A DNA stretch of 51,747 nucleotides, from assembly GCA_043764555.1 (NCBI GenBank), contig JAYUKJ010000441.1, positions 1-51,747 of the forward strand, read 5' to 3'. Both the position numbers and the translations under genes were made by a program. Shown piece after piece: positions 2,025 through 16,401 of this stretch. The notes under the pieces were generated by a model. It ran no database searches and had not been told where the DNA came from. It was given only the letters and a program-made list of their open reading frames with translations. This stretch comes from Saprospiraceae bacterium. GTDB lineage: Bacteria > Bacteroidota > Bacteroidia > Chitinophagales > Saprospiraceae. Numbering within the stretch: the stretch's first letter is position 1; every line of letters begins with the position of its first letter.

Positions 2025-3035
2025 TTACTCAATTTCAAAGTCATCGGTATCTGGAATATTAAAACTTTCGAGTATTTCTGTCCATTTGCGTTGCAACAAG
2101 TCTTTATTTGGGAGTTGTGTTTGATAATCGGCGACTAAGGTTGGTGAAAGGCTACGGCTTAGGGCGTATTCAACAACGGTATCATCTTTTCCTTTGCAGA
2201 GTAAAATGCCAATGCTTGGGTTTTCGGCTTCGGTTTTTATGTCTCTGTCAAGTGCTTCCAAATAAAAATTGAGTTGCCCGAGATGTTTGGGTTTGAAACG
2301 TTCTATTTTTAGTTCAATAGCGACCAAGCACCGTAGTTGTCTATGATAAAATAACAAGTCAATGGCAAAGTCTTGATTGCCCACTTGCAACGGGTATTCT
2401 TCACCCATAAAGGCGAAATCACGCCCAAATTCTAACAAAAACTTCGTAATATTTTGAGCAATGGCTTGTTTCAAGTCTTTTTCACTATGTGGTTCGGGCA
2501 GATTCAACAATTCTAAAACGTAAGAATCTTTGAAGACATTGGTAATATCTTGCGGTAAAACTCTCGACACTGTCGAGAGTTTTGCATTACCGAGCATAAC
2601 GCGCTCAAAGTAAGACGCATCGATTTGTCTTACGAGTTCACGGTAGGACAAACGTTCTTTCAACGAGAGACGAAGATAAAATTCCTTTTCTCTTATGTCA
2701 TTACAAGAGGAGAAAATCAATGTATTGTGCGACCACGATAATTCTCGCACCAGCGGTGCGAGTTCTGGCTCGTCTTTGTAAGTCTCGTAAAATTGCTTCA
2801 TGCGCCAAAGATTTTGCGCTGAAAATCCTTTCACATTCGGCTCATTTTGAGCGATAAACGCGGCCAATTCTTTGATGATGGATTTTCCCCACGTTTTAGC
2901 CGTGATTTGCTGATGCAGATATTCACCGATAGTCCAATACAACAAGACTAATTCGTGATTTACTGCTTGGTATGCCCGTTTTTTAGCTTCGGCAATGAGC
3001 GTTGTGATGTGCGAAAACTGCGTTTGTAATGCCAT
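2025..3035 (-). CDS. PDDEXK nuclease, YhcG / DUF1016 family
   Basis: N-terminus MALQTQFSHITTLIAEAKKRAYQAVNHELVLLYWTIGEYL and the C-terminal ...DLLFYHRQLRCLVAIELK... (D...ExK) are typical of DUF1016. Start trimmed to Met13 of the ORF (ATG at 3035) because the longer ORF overlaps the rsmH end. Confidence 0.8.
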   Translation of the reverse strand: MALQTQFSHITTLIAEAKKRAYQAVNHELVLLYWTIGEYLHQQITAKTWGKSIIKELAAFIAQNEPNVKGFSAQNLWRMKQFYETYKDEPELAPLVRELSWSHNTLIFSSCNDIREKEFYLRLSLKERLSYRELVRQIDASYFERVMLGNAKLSTVSRVLPQDITNVFKDSYVLELLNLPEPHSEKDLKQAIAQNITKFLLEFGRDFAFMGEEYPLQVGNQDFAIDLLFYHRQLRCLVAIELKIERFKPKHLGQLNFYLEALDRDIKTEAENPSIGILLCKGKDDTVVEYALSRSLSPTLVADYQTQLPNKDLLQRKWTEILESFNIPDTDDFEIE

Positions 3036-3054
3036 AGTGATGTAGAATAATAGT

Positions 3055-3954
3055 TTATATTTTCTCCGCAATTCTTAATTTTGCCGACCTTGAACGTGGA
3101 TTCACCCGCGTTTCTTCCGCCGTTGGTTCAATTGGTTTTTTAGTAATCACTTTAAACGGGCGCGTGATATTGCCGTAGAAGTCCGTTTCTAAAGCGCCAT
3201 CAAAATTGCCCGATTTCATAAAATTTTTCACCAAACGGTCTTCAATTGAGTGAAAAGTAATGACCGAAAGGCGTCCGCCGGGCTTCAAAACGGCGAGCGA
3301 TTCTTTCAAAAAATCCTTCAAAGCGCCAATTTCATCGTTCACTTCCATCCGCAAAGCCTGAAAAACTTGCGACCGATAGCGCATTTTTTCGCCCATACTG
3401 AGGGGGTCCATAATTGCCAACAAATCATTGATATTTTTAAAGCGTTTGCCACTGCGGGCCTGCACAATTGCCTGTGCGAGAGTGCGTGAGTTGCGCACTT
3501 CGCCGTATTCGCTGAGGATGCGTTGCAGTTCCTCGGCGGGTTCTTTGTTGAGAATATCGGCGGCCGTTTTGCCCGCACTTTGATTCATCCGCATATCGAG
3601 TGCCGCATCGAAACGGTAAGAAAAACCGCGCTTGGCGTCGTCGAGTTGGTGCGAAGACACGCCTAAATCGGCCAAAATGCCGTCAACTGCGCGGACACCT
3701 TCAAGCCTTAGCAAGCGTTTTATGTCTCTAAAATTATGATTTACGAAGTGAAAACGCGGTTCGTCGGTCGGTAGATTGCGTCGGGCGTCGGCGTCTTGGT
3801 CGAAGCCGTAGAGTTTGCTATCGGCATCTAATTGGTTGAGAATCAAGCGACTGTGGCCGCCGCCGCCAAAAGTGGCATCGACGTAAACGCCAAAGGGTCG
3901 CAGGCTTAACGCCTCGACCGCTTCATTGAGTAAAACTGTTATATGATAATTCAT
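3055..3954 (-). CDS. rsmH: 16S rRNA (cytosine1402-N4)-methyltransferase RsmH (MraW)
   Basis: Full-length similarity to the RsmH family (VDATFGGGGHS SAM motif, ADLGVSSHQLD). Located downstream of mraZ. Confidence 0.95.
   Translation of the reverse strand: MNYHITVLLNEAVEALSLRPFGVYVDATFGGGGHSRLILNQLDADSKLYGFDQDADARRNLPTDEPRFHFVNHNFRDIKRLLRLEGVRAVDGILADLGVSSHQLDDAKRGFSYRFDAALDMRMNQSAGKTAADILNKEPAEELQRILSEYGEVRNSRTLAQAIVQARSGKRFKNINDLLAIMDPLSMGEKMRYRSQVFQALRMEVNDEIGALKDFLKESLAVLKPGGRLSVITFHSIEDRLVKNFMKSGNFDGALETDFYGNITRPFKVITKKPIEPTAEETRVNPRSRSAKLRIAEKI
3395..3409 (-). repeat. Dispersed motif copy inside rsmH coding sequence
   Basis: ATACTGAGGGGGTCC on the + strand. It is read in frame on the minus strand as ..MDPLSMG.. 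Confidence 0.8.
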
Positions 3955-9823: not shown

Positions 9824-9854
9824 TGTGTAATCAAAATTTTTGGTAAAAAACGCG

Positions 9855-9871
9855 TTTATACTGAGGGGGTC
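9855..9871 (-). repeat. Dispersed motif copy
   Basis: TTTATACTGAGGGGGTC, 32 nt upstream of the 9002-9823 gene start. Confidence 0.85.
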
Positions 9872-10828: not shown

Positions 10829-11047
10829 TTTTTTCGCTTGTTGAGTGGTTAATAATTCTCGTGTAAAACTATCAAATCTTTTGTGAACGCCCGCTGAATA
10901 ATCACACGCGCATCTTCGGGCAAAATACCGATTAATCCGCCGCGAATGCGCTCGACATCTCTCTCGCCTTCCATCTCGGTGCGCATAAAAACGCCCCGTT
11001 TTGGGCTGCACAAATTCCCTAAAGCGCAAATATAGTCGTTTTTCGGG

Positions 11048-11064
11048 TTTATACTGAGGGGTCC
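11048..11064 (-). repeat. Dispersed motif, exact 17-mer (reverse)
   Basis: TTTATACTGAGGGGTCC, intergenic. Confidence 0.9.
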
Positions 11065-11078
11065 TTCGGGAAATAAAA

Positions 11079-11114
11079 ACGTCTTGGAAGGTGGCTTTCA
11101 AGACGTTTTTTTTT
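11079..11114 (-). terminator. Terminator downstream of the LRR-Roc-COR-TIR gene
   Basis: ACGTCTTG / CAAGACGT stem with T/A runs on both sides, 6 nt after the stop at 11120. Confidence 0.6.
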
Positions 11115-11119
11115 GATTA

Positions 11120-14100
11120 TTATAAAGGTTTTTGAACATCATTAATTACTTTTTCAATACTTTCAACAACTTCTAACCAAGCTGTATCTCTATCGGAAAA
11201 AGTACTAACAGCAACACCTTTTGCGGGTAGTGCTTGTTGCTTAGCAAAATCCAATTTAGTCCATTGACATGGTTTTAAAATAATGGGAATAACCCGTGCT
11301 TTTCCATTTTTACGTTGTTCTTCGGCAAGCGGAATTTCATGATTCCAAATATAATCGGTATTAATAAAATTGGCACTTACTAAAAAAAGGATAATATCTG
11401 CTTCTTTTAACTTTGCTTTAATAGTATCATCCCATAATTCACCACCAATAATATGCCTATCATCCCAATTTGACACAATATTGCGCCTTCTTAAAGGCGA
11501 AAGATGGGTTATTAATTCATCTTTGAGTTCTCTGTCTTTTTTAGAGTAAGAGATAAATATGGATAATGGTTTATTACGTCTCAACATATCTCCTTTTACT
11601 TCAATCTTCTCGACATTAATTGTCGTTATTACCTTGTCATCTACGATAAAATCCAAAAGTGTTAAAATACTTTTATTCACTTTAGCCTTTTGCCTCAACG
11701 CTTTTGAAAAGGATACATTATCAAAATGCTGCTTTATTTTAAGGGTAGATATTTCTGAATTTAGTAGAGCTATATTCTTTTTAAGTGACTCCTGATTATT
11801 TTCGTCTGCCCATTGTGAAACAATATTCACTGCTTCTATGGCTTTATCATTTCCAATTAAAGCACGAACTTTTACTTTGAGTTCATCGAGTGTCATTAAT
11901 ACTTCCATTTTTTGTTTTTGAGAAATGCCTTCAATGTCTAAATTGTACAATTTGGAGAATGATAAGTTTGAATTAACGTTTAAAAGATCTTTAAAATCTT
12001 CGACAAAGAAACGCTTACCGTCGTATGTGAAATTAGTTTCATCTTTATATTTTTCTAATTCTGTTAAAGGTATAAATGTTTTTCCATCAGTAGAAACGGT
12101 AATTTTAGAAGAAGTGTGGTGGTTATTTTTAAATTCATTACGAATAGTATCTAACCATAATTTACGTTTTTTTCCCTTTACTTCTATACGAATAGTTTTA
12201 TTTTTTTCATTGGCTACAATTAAAGCATCAACCTCTTGCCCTTCCAACCAAATACCATAACGCCACATTTGATTAACTTTAGAAAGACTACGAGCACTGA
12301 TAATGAAACTCTGAATAATACCATAGTAGAACCACGTATATTCAAGTTGTAAAAAAATACTATCTTTATTGTCTTTAAAAATACGTAAAACTGGAGGAGG
12401 AGCAGTTTCTGACATTAAAGAAGGGGCAACCCATATTTTTTTATCAAAATCTCCTTGACCAGACTCTGACTCAAAACAAATTCCACATTGCTGCATATAT
12501 TGAATAAAATATTGCTTTTCTTCCAAAGTATAATCCATCCATTTTTCATTCAATTCATTTAAAGAAAAACGACCATCTCCTTTGCTAACGATTTTGTAGA
12601 AAATACTATTTCTATCAAAAAGTGTGTAAACTGCGTCAATCAACCATTCTTGGTCTAATATAATTTGTCCATTAAAAAGCTTTGCATCATAGAAAAAGAC
12701 ACCTGTTTCATGCAAATAATCTAAAAGAGTTAATTTAGAATCGTTATCCAAGTCGTAATGATTACAAAAAGCAAAAAAAACTTCAAGACCTAATTGTTTT
12801 AAACCAGAATTATCTCCTTGCTCTTTATTTTTATTATTAAGTTGTTGTAATTGGTGTATCATATGGCGCACGCTGTGCCAAGATTGAGGAATTAGTGGCT
12901 GTTCTTTTATCGTTTTTTTAGCAAAACCTACCAACTCTTCTTTCAAATAATTAATCCCACGTCCTGTTTTTGAATCAATATGAAATGAATCAAGTAGATT
13001 AAAAACCTTTTTCCACTCTTGATACTGAGGGGGTATCTCTTTTTCATTGCCTTCCTTTTCAATTTTGGATTGGACAAGAAAGATAGGTGACTTTGGATTC
13101 AATTGCTTGATATAAGATAACCAATAGACTTGATCATAATTTATAAACACGTGTTTTTCATTAGTTTCAGGGTTTATTCCAAAAGCTTCATGTTGATTAT
13201 TATTTTCTATATCCCAAACTAAAACAGTTACAGCCTCTGTTTTTAAAAATAAACGATGTGTTTCATGAAACAAATGTTGACCACCGAAATCCCAAATATT
13301 AAAAAGAATATCAGGGTCAGCTTTCCATGCTTTTAAGTAAACTGCGTGTGTTGTTTTCTGTGCCTCATCAAATTCTTCGCCTTGCAAGACACGCATTAAA
13401 CTTGTTTTACCTGCTCGACCATTGCCAACAAAAACAACTTTCAGCGTATCATTGATATGGCTTCCTTTTTTTAAGTCTTTGAAGTAATTGTAAAGATTAA
13501 AACAACAATTTTCCGAAGACTTGTCGTATATCTTTTTAGGTATATTTTTGATTGGATTACCACTTAAAAACAATATTTGCAGGTCTTTTAAATAATCAAA
13601 GATATTACTCGGAAAGTTTGTGATTTTATTGCTGTCTAATGATAGATGATTTAAATGAGGTAAGAATTTTAAAAAGGAGACATCAACTATCTTATTATAA
13701 ACCAACACCAGTCGAGTTAATTTAGTGAAATTTTTCAAAAATGAAGCATCAACAAGGTCAGTATAGCCAAGATTTAACTTAGTTAAATTTGTTAATGATA
13801 ACAAAGGAGTGAAGTCTTTAATTTTATTAACACGCAAGTCAATATCTTCTAATTGGGGAGAATCTTTTAAAAATGAAATATCTTCAATATGATTATCCCA
13901 TAAATTTAAAGTCTTTAATTCTGTTAAATATTTTAAATGGGAAAAATCTTTAAGTCTATTATCCCATAAATTTAATTTTTGTATTTTAGGCAAATGCTCA
14001 AATACAGAAATATCGCTAATTTTATTTCTGCCTAAATCTAATTCTTTTAGGTTCTTTAATGAGCCTAACCAATCAATATTCTCAATTTCATTTTGTTCCA

Positions 14101-14638
14101 AATTTAGATAAGTCAGGTTTGGTAAATCTTTTAAAAATGAAATATCTTTAATTTCATTTACACTCAAATCTAAATGGCTTAGTTGTTTTATTTTTTGCAA
14201 AAAAGAATAATCTTTTGTTTTGTGATTACCTAAAATTAACCTATATAGATTTTGTGTATTACCTAAAAAGCTATAATCCTTAATTGGGTTATACCTCAAA
14301 TCTAAGACTTCTAACTGTGGTAAATCATTTATAAAAGAATAGTCTTCAATTACACTACAACCTATGTCTAAAATTTTCAAATTTCTCAACTCTTTAAAAA
14401 AGGAAAAATCCTTAATTTGACTGTAACGAATATCTAAGTACGTTAGACTATGCAAGTTTTTTAGATTTGAGTAATCTTGAATCTTTGATTTAGACAGATT
14501 TAGTTGATTTAAATAGCGTAATTCAACAATTTCGTCAGGTATTTTTCCAAGTGTTAGTTGGGATAGATTTAGTTCTTTAGCATTGTTTTCTTTGGCATTT
14601 TTAATAAGAACAAGCGCTTTTTGATAATCAGCAGTCAT
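11120..14638 (-). CDS. LRR - Roc (Ras-like GTPase) - COR - coiled coil - TIR multidomain protein (ROCO family with C-terminal TIR)
   Basis: aa ~20-370: ~15 repeats of 22 aa (LxxLxxLDLxxNxIxDxSFL). aa ~400-560: P-loop VVFVGNGRAGKTS, WDFGGQ (DxxG), SKIE. aa 1023-1172: TIR-like SIFISYSKKDRELKDEL...ADIILFLVSANFINTDYIWNHEIPLA with the conserved Glu (E1101, nt 11336-11338). Confidence 0.85.
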   Translation of the reverse strand: MTADYQKALVLIKNAKENNAKELNLSQLTLGKIPDEIVELRYLNQLNLSKSKIQDYSNLKNLHSLTYLDIRYSQIKDFSFFKELRNLKILDIGCSVIEDYSFINDLPQLEVLDLRYNPIKDYSFLGNTQNLYRLILGNHKTKDYSFLQKIKQLSHLDLSVNEIKDISFLKDLPNLTYLNLEQNEIENIDWLGSLKNLKELDLGRNKISDISVFEHLPKIQKLNLWDNRLKDFSHLKYLTELKTLNLWDNHIEDISFLKDSPQLEDIDLRVNKIKDFTPLLSLTNLTKLNLGYTDLVDASFLKNFTKLTRLVLVYNKIVDVSFLKFLPHLNHLSLDSNKITNFPSNIFDYLKDLQILFLSGNPIKNIPKKIYDKSSENCCFNLYNYFKDLKKGSHINDTLKVVFVGNGRAGKTSLMRVLQGEEFDEAQKTTHAVYLKAWKADPDILFNIWDFGGQHLFHETHRLFLKTEAVTVLVWDIENNNQHEAFGINPETNEKHVFINYDQVYWLSYIKQLNPKSPIFLVQSKIEKEGNEKEIPPQYQEWKKVFNLLDSFHIDSKTGRGINYLKEELVGFAKKTIKEQPLIPQSWHSVRHMIHQLQQLNNKNKEQGDNSGLKQLGLEVFFAFCNHYDLDNDSKLTLLDYLHETGVFFYDAKLFNGQIILDQEWLIDAVYTLFDRNSIFYKIVSKGDGRFSLNELNEKWMDYTLEEKQYFIQYMQQCGICFESESGQGDFDKKIWVAPSLMSETAPPPVLRIFKDNKDSIFLQLEYTWFYYGIIQSFIISARSLSKVNQMWRYGIWLEGQEVDALIVANEKNKTIRIEVKGKKRKLWLDTIRNEFKNNHHTSSKITVSTDGKTFIPLTELEKYKDETNFTYDGKRFFVEDFKDLLNVNSNLSFSKLYNLDIEGISQKQKMEVLMTLDELKVKVRALIGNDKAIEAVNIVSQWADENNQESLKKNIALLNSEISTLKIKQHFDNVSFSKALRQKAKVNKSILTLLDFIVDDKVITTINVEKIEVKGDMLRRNKPLSIFISYSKKDRELKDELITHLSPLRRRNIVSNWDDRHIIGGELWDDTIKAKLKEADIILFLVSANFINTDYIWNHEIPLAEEQRKNGKARVIPIILKPCQWTKLDFAKQQALPAKGVAVSTFSDRDTAWLEVVESIEKVINDVQKPL
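13022..13035 (-). repeat. Dispersed motif copy inside the ROCO-TIR CDS
   Basis: ATACTGAGGGGGTA on the + strand, read on the minus strand as IPPQYQ. Confidence 0.8.
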
Positions 14639-14762
14639 GAAGGAAAAGATAGATTTTAAGAATGAGTTACAGAAAAAGGGTGTTGAAATTGATAAAAGAA
14701 TGCGCCTGTTTGTTTTCTGTTAGGTATCTATTTCGTCGCCAAGATATTACCATTTTTTAGGT

Positions 14763-14779
14763 TTTATACTGAGGAGTCC
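14763..14779 (-). repeat. Dispersed motif copy, GGAG variant
   Basis: TTTATACTGAGGAGTCC, intergenic. Confidence 0.8.
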
Positions 14780-14854
14780 TCTTTTTTCAAAAAAAGGCAA
14801 GACTTCTACGGCTTTCGCAGCCAAACGGTTGTCAAACGGCGGTAGGCATCGCTA

Positions 14855-14887
14855 AACGTCGGCGAGGTTTGAAACCTCGCCGACGTT
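14855..14887. repeat. Palindromic hairpin element (15-bp stem AACGTCGGCGAGGTT), copy 1 of 2
   Basis: Perfect 15-bp arms with a 3-nt loop. The same stem sequence recurs at 37540-37572. Confidence 0.9.
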
Positions 14888-14912
14888 ATAATCGGTCGCC
14901 CGCCGAAAAAAA

Positions 14913-14929
14913 GGACCCCTCAGTATAAA
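14913..14929 (+). repeat. Dispersed motif, exact 17-mer
   Basis: GGACCCCTCAGTATAAA, intergenic. Confidence 0.9.
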
Positions 14930-15022
14930 CCCCTAAAAACGCTTGTATTTCAGAAAAAACGACTTACTTTTGTCAAAAAATAAAGCAATACTCCTTATGT
15001 TTAAAATCTAAAAACGATTATA

Positions 15023-15265
15023 ATGGTAGAATTAATTCTTAAATTACCATCACTTAGTGTTCTTGATAAATTATTGCCGCACTTGGAGCGATTAAAAATT
15101 TCTTACCAAACGAGAACTATCGAGCCGCCTGTGGCTGATGTTACAAAGCAAGAGGCTGTGTTCGCAAAAATAAATGCGGGTGTCCTTTCTTTCCCTAACT
15201 TAGAGGAAACAATGCGCGACTTTGAAGAAAGCCGACAGGATAATATATTGTTTGGACGCGACTAA
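15023..15265 (+). CDS. Small hypothetical protein, possible antitoxin of a decayed VapBC-like pair
   Basis: 80-aa ORF directly upstream of a truncated PIN-domain start. No recognisable motif of its own. Confidence 0.3.
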   Translation: MVELILKLPSLSVLDKLLPHLERLKISYQTRTIEPPVADVTKQEAVFAKINAGVLSFPNLEETMRDFEESRQDNILFGRD

Positions 15266-15301
15266 TTATTTCATAAATCAATTAAAAACAACACTTTATC
15301 T

Positions 15302-15349
15302 ATGAAAATTTTAGATAGTAACATCGTTATTTATACTACTCAGGTATAG
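15302..15349 (+). pseudogene. Truncated PIN-domain (VapC-like) toxin remnant, 15 codons
   Basis: MKILDSNIVIYTTQV then stop. (L/I)LD(S/T)N(I/V)xIY is the canonical PIN N-terminus containing the first catalytic Asp. Confidence 0.5.
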
Positions 15350-15388
15350 CTTTGTGAGCAATCTTTAAAATAGGGAAAACAAAAAACG

Positions 15389-15508
15389 ATGCATCAAGAA
15401 AGTCAAAATATAGAATGGAAAGAATCTTGGCGAGATGAATATCTCAAATGGATTTGCGGCTTTGCCGAAGGTGGCGGTAAATTAGGCGTTTGGGAAGTTA
15501 AATCATAA
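15389..15508 (+). pseudogene. N-terminal fragment of an AlbA_2 / Schlafen-like ATP-binding regulator gene
   Basis: MHQESQNIEWKESWRDEYLKWICGFAEGGGKLGVW then stop. ESxxxE(F/W)KESW..D.LK.ICAFAN..GG.L.IG is the hallmark start of AlbA_2-domain proteins, which are normally >400 aa. Confidence 0.55.
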
Positions 15509-15578
15509 ACGAAATCAAAAAAGAAGACTCATAGGTATAAACTCCAAAAAACATCTAAAATTGAATCGAAAGTTTTTT

Positions 15579-15609
15579 TTTGTGTTTTTACAAAAAAGGA
15601 ATAGATTTG
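15579..15609 (+). promoter_or_regulatory. Bacteroidota-type promoter (-33 TTTG, 19-nt spacer, -7 TAGATTTG)
   Basis: Exact match to the TTTG-N19-21-TAnnTTTG consensus, 43 nt upstream of the ATG at 15652. Confidence 0.45.
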
Positions 15610-15651
15610 CAGTCATTAATTGAGAATAACTGACTAAAACAACACACCCTA

Positions 15652-15843
15652 ATGAGTCAAGAAGAGCGTAAAAAAGAGGAACATTATTTAGAAATTCTTT
15701 ACCAATCGCTGCATATCACTACTATTTATGAAGACGATTTTCTAAAGAATTTTCGAGGAAGTCGGAGAACATTATTTGCCTACCGCGATGAAATATTAGA
15801 TAAAATCAACAATAAACGGCGTGTACTTGGGCTAATTATCTAA
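15652..15843 (+). CDS. Small hypothetical protein (63 aa)
   Basis: ORF preceded by a consensus promoter box. No recognisable domain. Confidence 0.35.
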   Translation: MSQEERKKEEHYLEILYQSLHITTIYEDDFLKNFRGSRRTLFAYRDEILDKINNKRRVLGLII

Positions 15844-15855
15844 AAAAATAAAACA

Positions 15856-16125
15856 ATGAAAAAAGTAAATCATAACGCTTTCGTTACAAAATATCAAGCT
15901 GCCGAAACAGCCGAGGCAAAACAGCAGTTGCTCAAAAATTTCATGTTGAGCCTTTCATTTGAAGAGTTGTTAGATTGGAATAATTTCCTTTCTGACAATA
16001 TAGATGTGCTGATTCAAAAAAACATCAAAGAGGGTTTGACAAAAGAAGATAAAGAGTTTTATCGCCAACAATTCGCTCGTTTTGATAATTTATCTGAACA
16101 AATTCAGCAAAAAGCAATGGCTTAA
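15856..16125 (+). CDS. Small hypothetical protein (89 aa)
   Basis: ORF 12 nt after the previous one, followed by a motif copy and a terminator. Confidence 0.4.
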   Translation: MKKVNHNAFVTKYQAAETAEAKQQLLKNFMLSLSFEELLDWNNFLSDNIDVLIQKNIKEGLTKEDKEFYRQQFARFDNLSEQIQQKAMA

Positions 16126-16136
16126 TTTTAAAACGA

Positions 16137-16152
16137 GACCCCTCAGTATAAA
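16137..16152 (+). repeat. Dispersed motif copy
   Basis: GACCCCTCAGTATAAA, 11 nt after a stop codon and 8 nt before a terminator hairpin. Confidence 0.9.
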
Positions 16153-16159
16153 CCCCCAA

Positions 16160-16195
16160 AAAACGCTTACAAACGCTTGTTTGTAAGCGTTTTTA
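16160..16195 (+). terminator. Rho-independent terminator
   Basis: 15-bp stem AAAACGCTTACAAAC / GTTTGTAAGCGTTTT with a 4-nt loop and T-run. Confidence 0.8.
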
Positions 16196-16401
16196 CTACC
16201 CAAACTTTTGTGGGTACTATTATTGATACCCAAAAGGACGCAGCTTTTCCATCACTCAAGACTTATTCGTTAAAAAAACACTATCAAAAATACCCATTTG
16301 AGAGCGTAGCCATCTTTGGCATTATGACTATCTTTGCACCTTATTTTGGGCAATAACATAAAAAGAGAAACAAACATTGCCGCTTTAAAACGTACTTAAT
16401 C

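Follow-up and report, generated by a model that had tools for sequence, protein, structure and literature searches.

A class of bacterial proteins that joins N-terminal leucine-rich repeats (LRRs) to an AP-GTPase (Roc), a COR module and variable effectors was predicted in 2021 to form a counter-invader system (Kaur, Iyer, Burroughs and Aravind, eLife; PMC8195603). The effectors named for this class include TIR, caspase and effector-associated domains (EADs) (PMC8195603, Fig. 6D), and 11 paralogues are present in the filamentous Bacteroidota Haliscomenobacter hydrossis (PMC8195603). A review of Roco proteins lists only LRR-RocCOR forms for prokaryotes and describes their physiological function as not known (PMC6337361), and a survey of bacterial pattern-recognition receptors published in Nature in 2026 is restricted to STAND NTPases. 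The gene analyzed here lies in a 51,747-nt window (the whole stretch of DNA under analysis) from a metagenome-derived Saprospiraceae bacterium. It encodes a 1172-aa LRR-Roc-COR-EAD11-TIR protein and is referred to as the ROCO-TIR gene. With somewhat better than even confidence, we read it as a cytoplasmic, single-polypeptide, NLR-like counter-invader sensor of the prokaryotic ROCO ('AP-GTPase') conflict class.

The protein has the complete layout of the class of Kaur et al.: N-terminal LRRs, an AP-GTPase (Roc)-COR core and a variable C-terminal effector or EAD, and nothing essential differs. Within the class, it is an instance with both EAD11 and a ThsB-like TIR domain in cis. The class is enriched in filamentous Bacteroidota such as Haliscomenobacter, and the source organism belongs to the Saprospiraceae. 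The support computed here comes from domain architecture, motif integrity, fold, the exchange of effectors within the family, and the defense and prophage contexts of relatives. The nature of the ligand, which way the GTP switch runs, the oligomerization of the TIR domain, its NADase activity and the phenotype are inferences.

The ROCO-TIR gene is an uninterrupted 3.5-kb open reading frame (ORF) with the coordinates given in an earlier, preliminary description of this DNA. No start precedes its ATG in the frame that opens behind the last in-frame stop codon, and the resulting N-terminus is common to the homologues by consensus. Pfam profiles for LRR, Roc, COR-A, COR-B and TIR_2 all exceeded their gathering thresholds, which bears out the domain order read earlier from the translation (LRR, Roc, COR, a helical segment, TIR). 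The LRR region, matched by LRR_4 (1.8e-48) and LRR_8 (1.8e-36), had also been located correctly at about residues 20-370; the estimate of some 15 repeats was too low, and 16 are present. These repeats are presumed to sense a ligand or invader. The N-terminus forms an amphipathic helix, and no signal peptide was seen. Roc is followed immediately by COR-A and COR-B, and the fold agrees with that of Chlorobium tepidum Roco (CtRoco; 3dpu) at a TM-score of 0.77, which places the protein in the ROCO family. No STAND, AAA_16, NACHT or NB-ARC match was found in the protein with Pfam, NCBIfam or PADLOC, and Roc is its sole NTPase. The view that a Roc GTPase takes the place of a STAND ATPase was thus upheld, and STAND/NLR membership was rejected for a protein without a STAND module. 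PADLOC-DB v2.0.0 holds no model for the Roc-COR core; its matches were ThsB, in the TIR domain, and LeoA, in the P-loop (2e-4).

A full-length AlphaFold2 model, built with 30 homologues in the alignment, reached a pLDDT of 86.3 and a pTM of 0.68. It shows a compact LRR-Roc-COR-A-COR-B body up to about residue 890, followed by two modules on disordered tethers (residues 901-914 before EAD11 and 1000-1021 before TIR). The COR-B region is beta-rich in the model (residues 735-886), and COR-B is the dimerization element of CtRoco, of which the query carries the equivalent domain. By sequence, residues 138-869 match the crystal and cryo-EM structures of the CtRoco LRR-Roc-COR body at about 1e-69. 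By structure, the best match to the model is CtRoco 6hlu (E = 9e-45), with LRRK2 and LRRK1 next. The model lies nearer to compact, nucleotide-free CtRoco (TM-score 0.54) than to the open, GTP-bound form 8r4b (TM-score 0.37).

Comparison with characterized proteins shows what is shared and what is particular to this one. CtRoco (PDB 6hlu, 8r4b, 3dpu) has the same LRR-Roc-COR body, P-loop and switch II, but it lacks TIR and EAD11 and has NKID at G4 where the query has SKIE. Human LRRK2, LRRK1 and DAPK1 have the same Roc-COR tandem after the LRRs and an enzymatic output domain (structural match about 1e-24). Their output is a kinase, whereas that of the query is a TIR domain, and the query is a bacterial protein without ARM, ANK or WD40 domains. 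Plant TNLs, Avs-TIR and bNACHT-TIR proteins share the logic of a repeat sensor, a nucleotide switch and a TIR domain in one polypeptide. In these TNL and STAND-TIR proteins, the switch is an NB-ARC or NACHT ATPase, whereas in the query it is a Ras-like GTPase with COR. The order also differs, being sensor-switch-effector in the query and effector-switch-sensor in TNLs.

The conserved motifs of the Roc domain were located by motif position and by alignment with CtRoco 3dpu (2.5e-25), in which the counterparts are GDGMAGKTS, WDFGGQ and NKID. The P-loop (G1) GNGRAGKTS (residues 405-413, nt 13400-13426) and switch II (G3) WDFGGQ (residues 449-454, with DFGGQ at 450-454) are intact and lie where they had been placed before. 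Motif counts among ROCO relatives show the P-loop and DFGGQ to be typical of the family. The G4 motif reads SKIE (residues 524-527, window 13061-13069), in which S replaces N/T and E replaces D of the canonical [NT]KxD. At the last G4 position, 179 ROCO relatives carry D (81), E (28) or G (26) as listed variants. Because E recurs as a family variant, SKIE in the query is not a sign of decay. The replacement of this aspartate suggests a relaxed or altered nucleotide specificity in a sizeable bacterial ROCO subgroup.

The C-terminal domain was analyzed at the level of sequence, fold and active site. It had been described as a TIR domain that retains E1101 in the context IWNHEIPLA, and this is borne out by the TIR_2 match (1.8e-12) and by the presence of E1101 (codon nt 11336-11338) in at least 90% of a 25-sequence TIR family alignment. 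The best defense-database match is the PADLOC ThsB1 profile (8.5e-40), and Cat1, a CRISPR-associated TIR NADase, is the closest solved TIR by sequence (2.6e-6) and likewise by fold. A model of the cassette formed by residues 898-1172 had a pLDDT of 88 overall and of about 95 over residues 1025-1169. Foldseek matched this model at probability 1.00 to Cat1, RPS4, AbTir (TM-score 0.74), SPARTA, SARM1 and plant TIRs. Model and search together identify the flavodoxin-like TIR fold, which also resembles that of the TNL TIRs RPS4, RPP1 and RUN1.

The pocket of Cat1 is lined by S7, H8, N9, N10, D33, S68 and E74, and its E74A variant is inactive (PMC12162218). In a HMMER alignment, S7, D33, S68 and E74 of Cat1 correspond to S1030, D1060, T1094 and E1101 of the query; no counterparts could be mapped in the query for the second-subunit residues K121 and Y122 of Cat1. 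With E1101 and the pocket residues conserved and the fold matched, the query TIR has the primary-subunit requirements of a catalytic TIR, and E1101 is its putative catalytic residue. The query shares its fold with Cat1, SARM1, AbTir and SPARTA, TIR NADases that oligomerization activates, and the pocket residues S, D, S/T and E with Cat1. Cat1, SARM1 and SPARTA are activated via a CARF/cA4, SAM-ARM or Argonaute module, whereas the query carries Roc-COR instead. ThsB1 of Thoeris gives the best profile, but in the query the TIR domain shares one polypeptide with a sensor and a switch. Thoeris membership was rejected, as no ThsA-type (SIR2/SLOG/Macro) partner gene occurs within 10 kb on either side of the ROCO-TIR gene and no second TIR occurs in the window.

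Ahead of the TIR domain, a helical or coiled segment had been described. It is indeed helical, but forms an EAD11 four-helix adaptor rather than a generic coiled coil, with helices at residues 917-929, 933-946, 950-971 and 977-999 in the AlphaFold2 model and a pLDDT above 90 in the cassette model. The Pfam EAD11 match (PF19964) is sub-threshold (1.8e-3, 18.7 bits for a cutoff of 26). Proteins with a genuine EAD11 score share 55-64% identity with this region, and a local EAD11 family profile matches it at 5.7e-23. Homologue identity, family profile and model therefore agree on a small helical adaptor adjoining the effector.

EAD11 and TIR also travel together. Free-standing EAD11-TIR proteins of 230-280 aa, in which EAD11 is found on either side of the TIR domain, are 55-64% identical to the query cassette, whereas the ROCO chassis of the query is at most 49% identical to anything. 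Judged by these identities, the EAD11-TIR cassette is a mobile unit. At one locus (L007, 1-2070), a COR-A/COR-B gene is followed 52 nt on, past several stop codons, by a separate EAD11-TIR gene. Its cassette is 61% identical to that of the query, in a COR-to-TIR alignment that averages 34% as a whole, and the gene break falls at the first disordered tether of the query. The two loci form a natural split/fused pair. The ROCO chassis, EAD11 and a ThsB-like TIR were also seen in cis in three protein fragments (P0044, P0045 and P0047); on these alignments, the combination is uncommon but not unique.

To survey the family, the Roc-COR core (residues 391-870) was searched against a library of 1.84 billion proteins. 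The search returned 700 representative clusters at E<=1e-30, the nearest of them 49% identical, and the C-terminal tails that follow a complete Roc-COR core were collected from 145 relatives. About 45 of these 145 close ROCO representatives end in TIR. Among the TIR tails, 28 are of a 'CMYEL' type, and 12 (about 17 by profile) cluster by blast with the ThsB-like TIR of the query. A 27-member tail cluster includes CHAT proteins, and the remaining tails comprise small DUF4062 and RNxxAH clusters, a single SEFIR, a single HNH and many short tails. EAD11 directly follows COR-B in 34/185 ROCOs and is the terminal domain in about half of these. A conserved switch combined with exchangeable effectors and split or fused variants is the signature of biological-conflict systems. 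The Roc-COR-TIR combination had been put forward as not yet characterized as a defense system, which holds for experiment but not for the class, given its prediction in 2021 (PMC8195603) and the frequency of TIR tails found here. The class is already catalogued computationally, with hundreds of members, and the value of the present case lies in the class rather than in the single gene.

Two further groups of tails were observed among the relatives. Three proteins (P0166, P0173 and P0228) carry tails of 270-370 aa that Pfam does not place and that end in RNKSAH, RNIAAH and RNSAAH. By eye, these RNxxAH tails resemble the Rx4-6H signature of HEPN RNases, and they may represent an undescribed HEPN-like effector family. 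Two prophage-borne ROCOs of about 1100 aa (L023 7569-10889 and L025 7371-10673) share a conserved C-terminal stretch of about 250 aa with no recognized domain and a hydrophobic GLPxVPExLL end, which could act on membranes or be a novel effector of another kind. Faster evolution of the LRRs than of the other parts of these proteins was not supported: in a crude per-domain comparison, the median identity was 32% for LRR, 35% for Roc and 27% for COR-B.

The genomic context of relatives was assessed at single loci and over 117 neighbor ORFs from 16 loci. In Paraflavisolibacter (L002), an LRR-Roc-COR-TIR gene adjoins a complete type I restriction-modification (R-M) system on a TraG-bearing element. 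At a second locus (L028), an OLD/AriA-like ATPase and a fused PARIS AriAB (PADLOC 1.7e-133) are followed by a ROCO gene and then an integrase. At a third (L024), a ROCO-TIR gene lies in the lysogeny module of a prophage, in the order CII and CI (divergent), WYL, ROCO-TIR, one ORF and integrase. At a fourth (L004), two tandem LRR-Roc-TIR paralogues are accompanied by ThsB-like TIR genes and a PDC-M50 candidate. Over all 117 neighbor ORFs, PADLOC reported R-M, PARIS, MADS and PDC-S08, and Pfam repeatedly matched each of the phage proteins CI, CII, Int and gpA. The effector swapping of the relatives and their defense-island and prophage contexts support the reading as an NLR-like immune sensor that had been proposed from the sequence of this gene.

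The fourth locus was also notable in its composition. Over L004 7802-18063 (also in L005), a single strand encodes proteins of 213 and 387 aa, a 139-aa ThsB_TIR protein, ROCO-TIRs of 1030 and 1251 aa and a 391-aa TIR protein. The PADLOC candidate PDC-M50B matches the 139-aa protein, and PDC-M50A matches one ORF in the pooled scan of the 16 loci. The cluster recurs in no fewer than 24 metagenome contigs and is possibly a multi-TIR ROCO system.

A mechanism can be proposed on this basis. The 16 LRRs would recognize a protein of the invader, probably a phage, either by binding it or through its effect. This would release a compact, autoinhibited state in which the LRRs rest on Roc-COR, and the nucleotide and oligomeric state of Roc-COR would change. 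The EAD11-TIR cassette on its two flexible tethers would then be freed to self-associate through homotypic EAD11 contacts, COR-mediated assembly or both. Adjacent TIR domains would build composite NADase sites around E1101 and consume NAD+, and the loss of NAD+ would arrest or kill the infected cell (abortive infection). For ROCO-TIRs in general, we give an even chance to the proposal that they are single-gene anti-phage receptors in which the Roc-COR GTPase gates the assembly of a TIR NADase and EAD11 acts as a death-domain-like homotypic nucleator.

The alternative that survives best, although we consider it unlikely, shares the sensor and differs in the output: the TIR domain could be a ThsB-like generator of a gcADPR- or His-ADPR-type messenger that acts on an effector elsewhere, or EAD11 could recruit effectors in trans. 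The ThsB1 profile is the best defense-database match of the TIR domain, and small ThsB-like TIR genes accompany ROCO-TIR genes at two loci (L004 and L021). Many ROCOs that lack an effector end in EAD11, and EAD11-effector proteins also occur on their own, as predicted by the 'EAD principle' of Kaur et al. (PMC8195603). In this window, however, the ROCO gene is present as one copy with no other TIR, EAD11 or Roc-COR ORF, and no ThsA-type gene lies within the 10 kb searched on either side. Moreover, many single-polypeptide sensor-TIR fusions deplete NAD+; SARM1, SPARTA, Cat1 and bacterial Avs-TIR and bNACHT-TIR proteins all act in this way.

A physiological role appears more improbable still. 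Here, a filamentous, multicellular-type member of the Saprospiraceae would use the protein to switch regulated cell death or its physiology, for example in kin or developmental death or in stress-linked control of NAD, with the GTP level as the input. The gene stands alone among housekeeping genes in this window and in two relatives, Roco affinities lie within the cellular GTP range and a GTP-sensor role has been proposed (PMC6337361), and Kaur et al. tie such systems to multicellular bacteria (PMC8195603). Against this, effector swapping, a mobile cassette and placement in prophage lysogeny modules and beside R-M and PARIS genes typify immunity and not housekeeping regulators, and the low GC content of the segment hints at accessory, acquired DNA.

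The reading as an acquired gene that no longer functions, a relic in a low-GC islet undergoing decay, is very unlikely. The neighboring small ORFs do look fragmentary and G4 deviates from NKxD, but the 3.5-kb frame is unbroken, every catalytic motif is kept, the structure models are confident, and E at G4 recurs across the family. A secreted virulence or host-interaction factor, in which an internalin-like LRR region would deliver the TIR domain against TLR signaling or NAD metabolism after the model of TcpB, TcpC and TirS, which subvert eukaryotic hosts, is scarcely credible, because its points of support (database labels of 'internalin A' on relatives and best partial NCBIfam matches to internalins and type III LRR effectors, each well short of its cutoff) face a protein with no signal peptide, no Por_Secre_tail or type IX secretion domain although neighboring genes carry one, a central Roc-COR that is a cytoplasmic switch, and relatives in prophage and defense contexts.

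Several points weigh against reading the ROCO-TIR gene as a counter-invader sensor. No experimental evidence for any prokaryotic ROCO in defense was found in the literature. CtRoco is a dimer when nucleotide-free and a monomer when GTP-bound (PMC5714945, PMC11052575), and since TIR domains need oligomers, this cycle does not map simply onto TIR activation; EAD11 or ligand-induced clustering would have to supply the assembly. The G4 motif is SKIE and not NKID, and E occupies that position in only 28 of the 179 relatives. The contexts of relatives are raw counts without background-corrected enrichment, and the phage context is partly there by construction, as 10 of the 16 loci come from a viral-contig collection. 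Two homologues (P0002 and P0009) sit among housekeeping genes. In this window, no verified defense gene adjoins the ROCO-TIR gene, the neighbors being hydrolases and a Wzy-like protein. The preliminary description saw decayed toxin-antitoxin and AlbA_2 genes next to it, which could not be verified: Pfam gave no match at E<=1 for the 80-aa ORF, for the stub of 15 codons ('MKILDSNIVIY') or for the 39-aa fragment read as 'AlbA_2', and the 80-aa ORF has no BLAST similarity to the antitoxin that stands beside an intact PIN gene at the locus of a homologue.

Prokaryotic Roco proteins serve as structural models for the Parkinson's-disease kinase LRRK2, and how the GTP cycle of Roc-COR controls an output domain is a question for LRRK2 as well. 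A ROCO with a TIR output would give the Roc-COR switch a simple read-out in NAD+ consumption or cell death. If phage protection proves true, a GTPase-gated class would join bacterial NLR-like immunity, which now consists mostly of STAND ATPases, and the prokaryotic homologues of LRRK2 would gain their first physiological function. For comparative genomicists, this would hold little surprise; it would be useful as an experimental entry point to these homologues.

Table 1. Coordinates of the ROCO-TIR gene, its domains and adjoining features in the window.
Feature	Position (nt)	Strand	Evidence
Complete gene, 1172-aa LRR-Roc-COR-EAD11-TIR	11120-14638	-	ORF listing, Pfam, AlphaFold2 model; stop codon 11120-11122
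16 internalin-like 22-residue LRRs, aa 19-370 (presumed sensor)	13529-14584	-	Perfect 22-aa register; Pfam; strand/helix alternation in model
Roc GTPase, aa 398-553	12980-13447	-	Pfam Roc aa 400-526, 4.5e-20; CtRoco 3dpu alignment
COR-A, aa ~562-741	12416-12955	-	Pfam COR-A aa 584-741, 3.4e-20; helical in model; aligns with CtRoco COR
COR-B, aa ~742-890	11969-12415	-	Pfam COR-B aa 763-859, 1.2e-11
EAD11 (effector-associated domain 11), four-helix bundle, aa 917-999	11642-11890	-	Homologue identity, local profile, AlphaFold2
ThsB-like TIR, aa 1025-1169	11132-11566	-	Pfam TIR_2 aa 1027-1132, 1.8e-12; PADLOC ThsB1; Foldseek
Terminator-like hairpin	11075-11110	-	16-bp stem with flanking A- and T-runs; 9 nt past stop codon
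Low-GC segment with the ROCO-TIR gene and four small unannotatable ORFs	11100-16400		Composition profiles

The ROCO-TIR gene lies in a segment of about 11.1-16.4 kb whose GC content is 24-36%, compared with 40-46% in the flanks, and which was possibly acquired horizontally. The flanking genes encode two alpha/beta hydrolases and a Wzy_C-like membrane protein. For an empty-site comparison, the Wzy-like gene was searched against 185k species genomes and recovered Saprospiraceae relatives. The closest genome shares only this gene (90% amino acid and 79.5% nucleotide identity), with synteny lost, and in no relative among these genomes does a hydrolase or a ROCO gene stand beside it.

The gene had been described as monocistronic, with a terminator at 11079-11114. 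A hairpin was indeed found, at slightly different positions (Table 1), and T-runs flank it on both sides; transcription as a separate unit is plausible, given the divergent ORFs upstream and a TAtaTTTG -7-like box that serves the hydrolase gene downstream. In the 300 nt upstream of the ROCO-TIR gene, no Bacteroidota -7 box (TAnnTTTG) was recognized.

The small ORFs upstream occupy window positions 15023-16125 on the plus strand, and none of them has a Pfam match. They comprise the 80-aa ORF, the PIN-like 15-codon stub (15303-15350), the 39-aa fragment (15390-15509) and a pair of 63 and 89 aa (15652-16125). The stub resembles PIN at 9 of 15 residues, by eye only, and the 63-/89-aa pair, which matches no known family, might be an uncharacterized two-gene module. 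Farther away, a DUF1016_N/YhcG_C (PDDEXK nuclease-like) gene at 2025-3071 on the minus strand (L001 21833-22843) adjoins the cell-division genes mraZ/rsmH. A DUF1016 fragment also lies near the Paraflavisolibacter ROCO-TIR gene, which is probably a coincidence.

The motif CCCCTCAGTATAAAC was considered as an insertion boundary and rejected, as it is a genome-wide intergenic repeat with 28 copies where 0.02 would be expected. The core of this genome-specific repeat, GGACCCCTCAGTATAAA, follows an A-rich run, and its 28 copies in 51.7 kb lie on both strands, for example at 9852-9868(-), 11045-11061(-), 14916-14932(+), 16139-16155(+), 21095/21168, 42508/42570 and 43107/43169. Some copies form inverted pairs with a spacer of about 30 nt, and copies are often near terminator hairpins or -7-like boxes. 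A similar motif, AAATACTGAGGGGGG, occurs in the intergenic gap of the split locus L007. Within the 385-nt intergenic region upstream of the ROCO-TIR gene, a perfect GC-rich hairpin, GTCGGCGAGGTTTGAAACCTCGCCGAC (14858-14886), stands between two copies of the repeat and may end transcription on the divergent side or have a regulatory role.

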